A model generated the notes under the pieces. That model was given only the letters and a program-made list of their open reading frames with translations, did not search any database and had not been told where the DNA came from. From a virus (Duplodnaviria; Heunggongvirae; Uroviricota; Caudoviricetes), in IMG/VR virus record IMGVR_UViG_2728369554_000005: DNA of 12,733 nt. One strand, 5' to 3'. Positions 10,677 through 11,730 of this stretch are shown one piece after another. A program made the position numbers and the translations under genes. Position 1 is the stretch's first letter, and each line of letters starts with the position of its first letter.

Positions 10677-10813
10677 AGCTTTCTCCTATCTGTAAGTAGT
10701 AAAGTTGTTGATAACTTCGATTATACAACTACAACAACTTTTATCACAACTTTTAGATGTTGGAAAGCTAAAACATAAAGTTGTAACCTCAATAAAAACG
10801 AGGGGGATATGTT
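10677..10813. promoter_or_regulatory. OR-type operator/promoter region (divergent pR for cro and pRM for cI)
   Basis: Repeated half-site AAGTTGT/ACAACTT at least four times, including the palindrome AAGTTgttgatAACTT. Minus-strand perfect TATAAT (about 10725-10720) upstream of cro. Plus-strand TTAGAT, 17-nt spacer, TAAAGT (about 10753-10781) upstream of cI. Confidence 0.7.
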
Positions 10814-11500
10814 GTGAAAACATTGGCAGAAAGACTAAAAAGCGAAAGAGAAAAAGCAGGAATGAGTCAGGCGCAACTAGCTGAAAAAATTGGGCTTTCA
10901 CAACAATCCGTAGCGAAAATCGAGAATGGAGAAACTCAACAGCCTCGGAAAATTAAAGAGATTGCTAAAGTGTTAGGGGTTTCTCAAAAGTGGTTGCAAT
11001 TGGGCATTGAGGATAACGCGTCTTTCCCAGACCTTGTTGTAAAGGAGGCTGAAAGTACAGCATTAGATCCTGACATTTTTGCAAACATTCCAGTCCTAGA
11101 TGTCGAGTTATCAGCGGGTAATGGATGTTTGGCTGAAATAGTTGAATCAACTGTAGACTGGTTCCCGCTAAGAAGGATTGATTTAAGAAAAGCTGGTGTA
11201 TGTGTCTCCAATGCAAAGATCGTAAAAATTTGGGGCAATAGTTTACTACCTGTACTTAACAATGGAGATTTTGTTGCTGTTGATGTTTCCCAAACGGTTC
11301 CTATTCGTGATGGGGATCTTTATGCCATACGTGATGGCGTATTACTTAGAGTTAAAATATTGATCAATTTACCTGACGGTGGTCTGATTCTAAGAAGTTT
11401 CAATAAAGATGAGTATCCAGATGAAATACTCACCTTCGAAGATAGGCGTTCCAGAATTCACGTTATAGGTAGAGTATTCTGGTCATCGCGCACTTGGTAA
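10814..11500 (+). CDS. cI: cI-type prophage repressor (HTH_XRE N-domain plus S24 LexA-like autopeptidase C-domain)
   Basis: GTG start with SD gaggggg. N-terminal HTH (MSQAQLAEKIGLSQQSVAKIENGE). C-terminal domain with Ala-Gly cleavage site (LSAGNG), Ser nucleophile (GNSLLP) and Lys (LRVK) in LexA-like spacing. Confidence 0.9.
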   Translation: MKTLAERLKSEREKAGMSQAQLAEKIGLSQQSVAKIENGETQQPRKIKEIAKVLGVSQKWLQLGIEDNASFPDLVVKEAESTALDPDIFANIPVLDVELSAGNGCLAEIVESTVDWFPLRRIDLRKAGVCVSNAKIVKIWGNSLLPVLNNGDFVAVDVSQTVPIRDGDLYAIRDGVLLRVKILINLPDGGLILRSFNKDEYPDEILTFEDRRSRIHVIGRVFWSSRTW

Positions 11501-11690
11501 TGCATCAAAAAACCTTCCTTCAGAAATTTAGTTACCATTATTACCCGCCTTTTCAATCTTCCTCCCGTGATTTGAGAGTTTCCAATCACGGAAGGAAAGT
11601 GTCCCTTGTGTAATTAAAAGCGCATCGTCCATACAACCTCCTTTTTTGATAACCCTTGCCCTCATTTCACATCCGTCAAAACCACATAAA

Positions 11691-11730
11691 GTTGTTGACA
11701 ACAACCAAAACAACAACTAGATTACAACTT
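11691..11730 (+). promoter_or_regulatory. OL-type operator with candidate pL promoter
   Basis: Perfect 15-bp palindrome GTTGTTGACAACAAC (11691-11705) containing -35 TTGACA (11695-11700), 17-nt spacer, then -10 TAGATT (11718-11723). Further ACAACTT half-sites follow, sharing the OR motif. Confidence 0.6.

Follow-up and report, generated by a model that had tools for sequence, protein, structure and literature searches.

The stretch of DNA studied here is the IMG/VR virus record IMGVR_UViG_2728369554_000005 (Caudoviricetes; 12,733 nucleotides, hereafter "the window"), and positions 10,677 to 11,730 of it are the immunity region of a lambdoid Escherichia coli prophage. That a prophage immunity region lies here had already been proposed from the letters alone (the original prediction), and gene order, domains and operators all agree with it. 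A cro-like gene and a cI repressor gene diverge from a 137-bp intergenic region, as in lambdoid CI/Cro regions, and the order cro-like, cI, cII-like, together with the expected domains, supports the reading as a CI/Cro switch (Table 1). We refer to the operator region between the cro-like gene and cI as the right operator (OR) and to the one around the promoter pL, downstream of cI, as the left operator (OL). The 1.8 kb around the immunity region are 99.9% identical to chromosomal prophages of E. coli (20Ec-P-124, BCE049 and others), and at least 80% of this region was present in 44 of 5,426 complete genomes, the records of which annotate YmfL, a YdaS-family helix-turn-helix (HTH) protein and an XRE-family regulator. 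No known phage with the same immunity was found among 50,697 phage records, where the best CI identity by tblastn was 44%; the CI proteins of the Stx phages in this collection are about 41% identical to that of the window. The immunity specificity has not been characterised before, and in other respects this is an ordinary lambdoid switch.

Table 1. Features of the immunity region and its neighbours, in window coordinates unless a relative is named (PWM, position weight matrix; S1 to S3, orphan half-sites of OR)
Feature	Position	Strand	Remarks
CII-like (CP76) protein gene	9848-10438	-	domain and PHROG matches
cro-like gene, 82 residues	10428-10676	-	open reading frame; YdaS-family HTH; Pfam YdaS_toxin 3.6e-14; PHROG 35, transcriptional repressor
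S1, AAAGTTGTT	10701-10709		about +5 to +12 of the pR transcript; conserved island
pR	10720-10749	-	-10 TATAAT (10725-10720), 18-bp spacer, -35 TTGTGA (10749-10744); consensus scan 10/12
S2, ACAACTA	10725-10731		adjoins pR -10
S3, ACAACTT	10734-10740		in pR spacer; 9-10-bp inverted repeat with S1
OR site e, ACAACTTTTAGATGT	10746-10760		PWM 18.4 bits; found in all related loci
Candidate pRM (inferred)	10760-10789	+	-35 TTGGAA (10760-10765); -10 TGTAAC (10782-10787) or TAACCT (10784-10789)
OR site f, AAAACATAAAGTTGT	10770-10784		PWM 18.8 bits; overlaps candidate pRM core
cI repressor gene, 228 residues	10814-11500	+	Pfam HTH_3 1.2e-15 and Peptidase_S24 9.5e-14
BRCT-gene remnant, 34 codons	11528-11632	-	about 714 bp deleted at about 11605/11607
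OL site a, ACCACATAAAGTTGT	11681-11695		PWM 19.7 bits; kept in all relatives
Palindrome GTTGTTGACAACAAC	11691-11705		right half of site a, -35 and unconserved spacer
pL	11695-11723	+	-35 TTGACA (11695-11700), 17-bp spacer, -10 TAGATT (11718-11723); consensus scan 10/12
OL orphan half-site, ACAACTA	11713-11719		overlaps start of pL -10; 11 bp upstream of site b
OL site b, ACAACTTAAAGATAT	11724-11738		PWM 15.8 bits; covers pL start (-6 to +9)
Structured RNA in pL leader, 62 nt	11746-11807	+	starts about 16 nt after pL start; covariation; not part of the operators
Intact BRCT gene in relatives	L002 4082-4972; L003 3179-4060	-	PHROG 3989, function unknown

Relatives of the region were collected from three sources: an E. 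coli variant (L002, 89% identity), four genomes from Pseudomonas lundensis, Providencia, Proteus and Serratia, the CI proteins of which are 58-69% identical to that of the window, and the IMG/VR contigs containing the 16-mer ACATAAAGTTGTTGAC. The search with this 16-mer gave 120 IMG/VR matches, 42 of which have a second site exactly 43 bp downstream and represent 32 distinct sequences; the whole set comprises about 45 non-identical related loci (E. coli, Serratia, Providencia, Proteus and IMG/VR contigs). Site formats were counted in the 12 OR and OL regions of the first six loci, and a phylogenetic footprint was made from 26 distinct OR and 34 distinct OL sequences. The P. lundensis locus (L003, JAWQUI010000002.1) has OR and OL regions near-identical to the enterobacterial ones and a CI 69% identical to that of the window, and its host label may deserve checking.

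The heptamer AAGTTGT, or its complement ACAACTT, had been put forward as the operator half-site common to OR and OL, and this holds. Eight copies are found in the window against 1.95 expected, a number reached by none of 200 shuffles, and six of them lie in the two intergenic regions, at 10702, 10734, 10746, 10778, 11689 and 11724. Absence of the repeats from phages sharing this immunity had been named in the original prediction as a ground for its refutation; as every relative carries the half-sites, the prediction is not refuted on this ground.

What did not stand is the way in which the halves had been paired. In the 12 OR and OL regions, ACAAC-N5-GTTGT occurs at 23 sites with at most one mismatch and at 27 with at most two (0.71 in shuffles), whereas the orientation first proposed, GTTGT-N5-ACAAC, occurs at only three and seven sites, respectively. 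The 14-bp format of phage 434, ACAAC-N4-GTTGT, was rejected, having no site with at most one mismatch and four with at most two; the second-ranking format, with an N8 spacer, has 12 sites with at most one mismatch and represents OR site e in another register, and every other format has six or fewer. Two further readings were discarded: an ACAAC-N8-GTTGG site at e, which is site e shifted by 3 bp (the N5 format, which also fits the other three sites, was preferred), and a 16-bp AAGTTGT-NN-ACAACTT unit (10702-10717 and 11689-11704), the right halves of which lack conservation among L002-L006. Counted over 24 operator sites, the matrix gives the consensus ACAACTT(A/T)AAGTTGT, symmetric about position 8, with A1, C5, G11, T13 and T15 invariant in all 24 sites and with T7 and A9 complementary. 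Because the format counts and the symmetric matrix both favour ACAACTT-N-AAGTTGT, the heptamer is the right half-site, paired in the opposite sense to that first proposed, and the conserved unit is the 15-bp ACAACTT-N-AAGTTGT (ACAAC-N5-GTTGT). A PWM built from the 24 sites and run over the whole window with a threshold of 6 bits returned only the four OR and OL sites of Table 1 and one other, at 12523-12537 (shuffles gave 0.08 sites at 12 bits or more). In the footprint, the conserved blocks match the 15-bp sites and the promoter hexamers, and the pL spacer is unconstrained.

These results bear directly on the palindrome GTTGTTGACAACAAC, to which the original prediction had drawn attention over the pL -35, and on a model in which it is the principal OL operator and convergent AAGTTGT...ACAACTT pairs form the operators generally. 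The palindrome does exist and embeds the TTGACA hexamer, a GTTGT-N5-ACAAC arrangement near cro is also seen in one Providencia locus (L004) and, with a 4-bp spacer, in the Proteus-type loci L005 and L093, and S1 and S3, in this same orientation, make up an inverted repeat that is long-range and conserved. However, perfect 7+1+7 palindromes are expected by chance (two in the window, a mean of 0.745 in shuffles, and at least one in 51% of shuffles), and among 33 distinct OL variants only two, which belong to the window's own type, have this one perfect; the 31 remaining variants carry two to five mismatches in seven positions. Its right arm falls in the 11 unconstrained bases that follow TTGACA and has about zero information in the footprint. 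The AAGTTGT at 11689 does not open a site with the -35 at its centre, as had been read, but is the right half of the site at 11681-11695, upstream of the -35, and the ACxACATA preceding it is conserved, as expected for the other half of that site. We therefore consider it very improbable that convergent pairs, or this palindrome, act as operators.

The perfect TATAAT of pR, the promoter of the cro-like gene, and the TTGACA of pL lie where the original prediction had placed them, and both are kept in relatives. The pR -10 retains TAnnnT throughout (TATAAT, TATATT, TATTCT, TACAAT or TATGAT), and 31 of 33 OL variants have a -35 TTGAC(A/T), a 17-bp spacer and a -10 TA(A/G)ATT, the two others, of Proteus type, reading AATATA and ATCATA at the pL -10 offset. 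The assignment of pL is further supported because a structured RNA, described below, sits just downstream of its start. At OR, site e overlaps the pR -35 and adjoins the candidate pRM -35, and f lies 24 bp from e in loci of the window's type, or 25 bp in those of the Providencia/Proteus type. Site f has a conserved C2-to-A deviation, so that this half reads AAAAC. The 9-bp spacer between the two sites, TGGAAAGCT, is invariant though outside the 15-bp sites, and supplies the pRM -35-like TTGGAA; the pRM -10-like element reads TGTAAT/TAATCT in relatives. In the cI leader, a Shine-Dalgarno sequence, GAGGGGGA, follows the candidate pRM -10 and precedes the GTG start at 10814. At OL, the centre of site a falls near -42 of pL and the site ends on the first T of the -35; the distance from a to b is 43 bp in every relative, the two sites bracketing pL. 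A shared and partially symmetric operator is found, in sum, over the pR -35, the candidate pRM core, the edge of the pL -35 and the pL start.

Throughout the set of about 45 loci there are two OL sites and, where OR lies within the sequence, two OR sites, with nothing else in most of them; a few loci have one additional PWM match, mostly a recurring site in an STnc100-like element (see below). No third full site was found in OR or OL, either at 6 bits or more in the window or at 11 bits or more in the relatives. Three adjacent operators per region are not seen, and orphan half-sites sit at the expected third positions. Site b of the window differs from those of its relatives by an A at 11737 (position 14, which is G in 23 of the 24 training sites), reading GATAT against GATGT, GGTGT or GTTGT. 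It has the second-lowest score of all b sites, only that of L016 (14.9) being lower, and the substitution may be an operator-weakening mutation.

According to its sequence motifs, CI is a helix-turn-helix protein joined to a LexA-like S24 autopeptidase, with an Ala-Gly cleavage site and a Ser/Lys dyad (SAGNG at 100-104, with Ala101-Gly102; GNSL at 141-144, with Ser143; RVKIL at 179-183, with Lys181), and self-cleavage is predicted. The closest match of its N-domain in the PDB is the repressor of phage 434 (E 1.2e-14 over 65 residues), followed by 434 Cro (9.8e-11); in the alignment to 434 repressor, Q17, Q28, Q29, S30 and R43 are conserved, T27 is replaced by Ser and Q33 by Lys. The sites bound by the 434 repressor are of 14 bp: four bases at either end, ACAA...TTGT, are conserved, contacts extend to five bases at either end, and the central four are read indirectly (PMC1636474). 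All 26 distinct CI proteins of the family keep a (S/T)QQ(S/A)(I/V)(A/Q)KIE recognition helix, and since QQ...K is retained in every one of them, with identities to the window CI down to 58% among the four relatives in which identity was measured, recognition helix and half-site are conserved together in diverged proteins. A contact of Lys35 to the C5:G pair is plausible. The cro-like product gave a single weak match in the PDB, to the lambda-type Cro 3bd1 (E 0.12), and is not 434-Cro-like.

Taken as a whole, we regard it as highly probable that the region is a CI/Cro switch in which a 434-type repressor acts on 15-bp operators of a new specificity. What was observed directly is that the motif is enriched, that the sites share a format, are conserved and keep their spacing, that the promoters are conserved and that the proteins have the homologies described. 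The identity of the binding protein, the relative affinities of the sites, pRM activation, cooperativity or looping, and the role of the orphan half-sites are inferred by analogy with lambda and 434. A CI dimer most likely binds the two-fold symmetric 15-bp ACAACTT-(A/T)-AAGTTGT, the recognition helix (S/T)QQ(S/A)(I/V)(A/Q)K reading the outer ACAAC/GTTGT pentamers and the five central A/T-rich bases probably being read indirectly, in a 434-like manner. Bound at site e, CI should occlude pR, because the pR -35 has its TTG within e (read there as CAA), and would repress cro and the lytic genes; e also lies at about -42 from the predicted pRM start, which is the activating position of OR2 in lambda and 434. 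Site f, placed over the pRM core like OR3, would serve negative autoregulation, act as a Cro target, or both, and its AAAAC deviation is consistent with a deliberately weaker site. The 43 bp between a and b (about four helical turns) are compatible with cooperative binding on the same face of the DNA, a spacing also imposed by the promoter between the two sites. Silencing of pR and pL, whether by CI or by Cro, is probably aided by the orphans, which lie on the -10 element of each promoter and, in the case of pR, near +8 as well.

Several observations weigh against this reading. That CI, and not Cro, would read the 15-bp sites is an assignment by analogy, and because the site is 15 bp and not 14 bp, the geometry of the 434 dimer cannot be transferred to it unchanged. 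There are two full sites per region compared with three in lambda and 434, and the PWM finds no full site over the pR -10 and start. The candidate pRM is absent from the list given by the promoter consensus scan. Cooperative binding of CI to e and f, which their spacing of 24 bp suggests, would repress pRM along with pR, unless f were a much weaker site. The 16-mer used to recover the IMG/VR loci contains most of site a, so that conservation of a is partly by construction in those loci, a sampling bias that does not touch sites b, e and f or any of the spacings. Finally, a simple model of one dimer per site does not account for five conserved orphans (S1, S2, S3, the OL orphan and a GTTGTG where cI starts).

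The orphans are as well conserved as the full sites. S1 is flanked by variable sequence in 26 distinct OR variants and no full 15-bp site scores there; ATACAAC at S2 is conserved at 90% or more in the same variants, S2 is lacking in the Providencia/Proteus type, and cACAAcTAaATT at the OL orphan is conserved in 34 OL variants. Every relative with the layout of the window (25 of the 29 OR variants compared) has S1 and S2 21 bp apart and S1 and S3 30 bp apart, as does the window by its coordinates. A GTTGTG at 10809-10816, including the GTG start of cI, is invariant in window-type relatives, most of which read AAGTTGTG there, which is another half-site. The possibility that S1 and S3 form a covarying RNA hairpin was also considered and is not supported, the flanking positions varying inconsistently.

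This conservation, with the invariant spacings just given and those of 11 bp from the OL orphan to b and 43 bp from a to b, which are near whole helical turns, as well as the lack of a full site over the pR -10 and start, would fit a model in which the single half-site ACAACTTT is the functional unit and CI forms a higher-order oligomer, its flexibly tethered N-domains filling full sites and orphans alike. Under this model CI would wrap or clamp pR (through S1, S2, S3, e and f) and pL (through a, the orphan and b) and would not act as independent dimers on 15-bp sites. We think such an oligomer unlikely: dyad symmetry is clear in the full sites and their internal spacing is fixed, as expected for dimers, and the geometry of the promoters also accounts for much of the invariance in spacing.

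Some or all of the motif copies, in particular the orphans over the -10 elements, might instead be bound by the YdaS-family Cro-like protein or by the CP76-family CII-like protein. In lambdoid switches CI and Cro act on common operators, and the position of the orphans would suit a lytic repressor that lowers transcription from pR and pL. The Providencia/Proteus loci, with a divergent cro-like gene, retain e and f but have a rearranged OR on the side of cro. CII proteins of the 186 type use inverted half-sites about two turns apart, and S1 and S2 are 21-23 bp apart. Against such targets, the 7-9-mer of the orphans is also that of each half of a full site, and the motif goes with the conserved recognition helix of CI; the Cro found here is not 434-Cro-like, so that a sharing of half-sites is not guaranteed, and no establishment promoter was identified at S1-S2. 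We give this explanation very little credence.

Another architecture, improbable in our view, is that this repressor family departs from the classical row of three adjacent operators and brackets each early promoter with two CI dimers, four to five turns apart and joined in a small repression loop. The pairs would be a and b at pL and, at pR, site e and a dimer anchored at S1, the orphans over the -10 elements assisting. If true, this would be a distinct switch architecture, in which a 434-type DNA-binding domain is re-spaced to 15-bp sites.

Returning to the preferred reading, that of dimers of a 434-type repressor on 15-bp operators, the known system closest to the window is phage 434, to which similarity is established within the aligned 65-residue N-domain only. 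Besides this domain, both have operators with ACAA...TTGT outside and an A/T-rich, presumably non-contacted centre, divergent cI and cro genes with pL downstream of cI, and an S24 peptidase C-domain. The sites of the window do not follow the 14-bp operator format of imm434: they are of 15 bp (5+5+5, or ACAA-N7-TTGT), whereas those of 434 are of 14 bp (5+4+5, or ACAA-N6-TTGT). They also have an invariant C5, and the window CI has Lys for Gln33; each region has two full sites plus orphans in place of three full sites, and Cro is YdaS/lambda-Cro-like rather than 434-Cro-like. As in lambda, one operator covers the pR -35 at about -42 of pRM (as OR2) and a second, 24 bp away, lies over pRM (as OR3), the repressor is predicted to be self-cleaving, and the cI-pL interval of the window's relatives holds an accessory gene comparable to rexAB. 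Unlike lambda, the operators are of 15 bp and not 17 bp and unrelated in sequence, there is no full site equivalent to OR1, the leaderless cI mRNA of lambda has its counterpart in one with a Shine-Dalgarno leader and a GTG start, pL is bracketed by OL sites at a distance of 43 bp where lambda has three adjacent sites, and the accessory BRCT gene of the relatives is on the strand opposite to cI. The Stx phage 933W, with two OL sites, is a lambdoid switch that departs from the canon of three plus three operators, and its repressor family and operator sequence differ from those of the window.

The operator code ACAACTT-N-AAGTTGT and the map of its sites apply to an immunity group found in about 44 complete E. 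coli genomes, in Serratia, Providencia and Proteus prophages and in many IMG/VR contigs. For the study of repressor-DNA recognition it offers a natural relative of 434 with Gln33 changed to Lys, an invariant C5 and one extra central base pair. Apart from its specificity this is a textbook lambdoid switch, of modest interest.

The original prediction had further remarked that the region is compact, no rex-like genes lying between cI and pL. This is literally so, and the window has no intact accessory gene in this interval, but the compact layout is secondary. Positions 11400-11605 of the window align to L002 3999-4225 and positions 11607-11760 to L002 4940-5101, and the short reading frame left in the window joins the first codons of a BRCT-domain gene to its last ones. 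In L002-L006, which were read directly, a gene of 293-296 residues stands between cI and pL on the strand opposite to cI, with a BRCT domain in both of those scanned. The distance from OR to OL is 935 bp in the window and in two IMG/VR contigs, compared with 1668-1687 bp elsewhere, and nearly all other relatives carry an insert of the same size, as judged by this distance. As the alignment to L002 flanks the gap of about 714 bp and the OR-to-OL distance is shorter, the compactness is due to deletion. The region upstream of the BRCT gene is conserved and adjoins site a of OL, and CI might also control this gene. The literature, searched for this motif and for BRCT genes of lambdoid immunity regions, gave nothing relevant.

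The structured RNA of the pL leader folds into a closing stem with two hairpins and shows compensatory changes in four pairs. It was found in 49 phage records, including SfV, SfII, SfIV, ST64B, mEp237, mEp460, SPN3UB, phiNP and ZF40, and in many IMG/VR loci; it has no match in Rfam, and the covariance model detected no second copy in the window. Its position suggests a leader RNA acting in cis, perhaps an antiterminator or some other leader element. Homology to putL of HK022 was considered and rejected, the only sequence match being an 8-mer and the covariance model finding nothing in the HK022 immunity region.

Downstream of this RNA, positions 12374-12596 on the plus strand match the Rfam family STnc100, a small RNA, below threshold (41.2 bits against a gathering score of 47). 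Inside this match, at 12523-12537, lies ACAACTTTATGCTGT, the one operator-like site outside OR and OL, which scores 16.1 bits with the operator PWM. A site of this type recurs with the STnc100-like module in several loci, at a variable distance from OL.

On the minus strand, between the Q antiterminator and the lysis genes, the prophage also carries an AB5-type toxin pair at 2879-4065, labelled in RefSeq as a scabin-related ADP-ribosyltransferase (243 residues) and a subtilase-family B subunit, in the position occupied by Stx in Stx phages. With this AB5/ADP-ribosyltransferase pair downstream of Q, predictions of induction and of toxin expression depend on knowing how the repressor holds pR and pL. 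Elsewhere in the window, masked runs of N at 5765-5900 and 8668-8735 break the KilA-N-like and replication-protein open reading frames.

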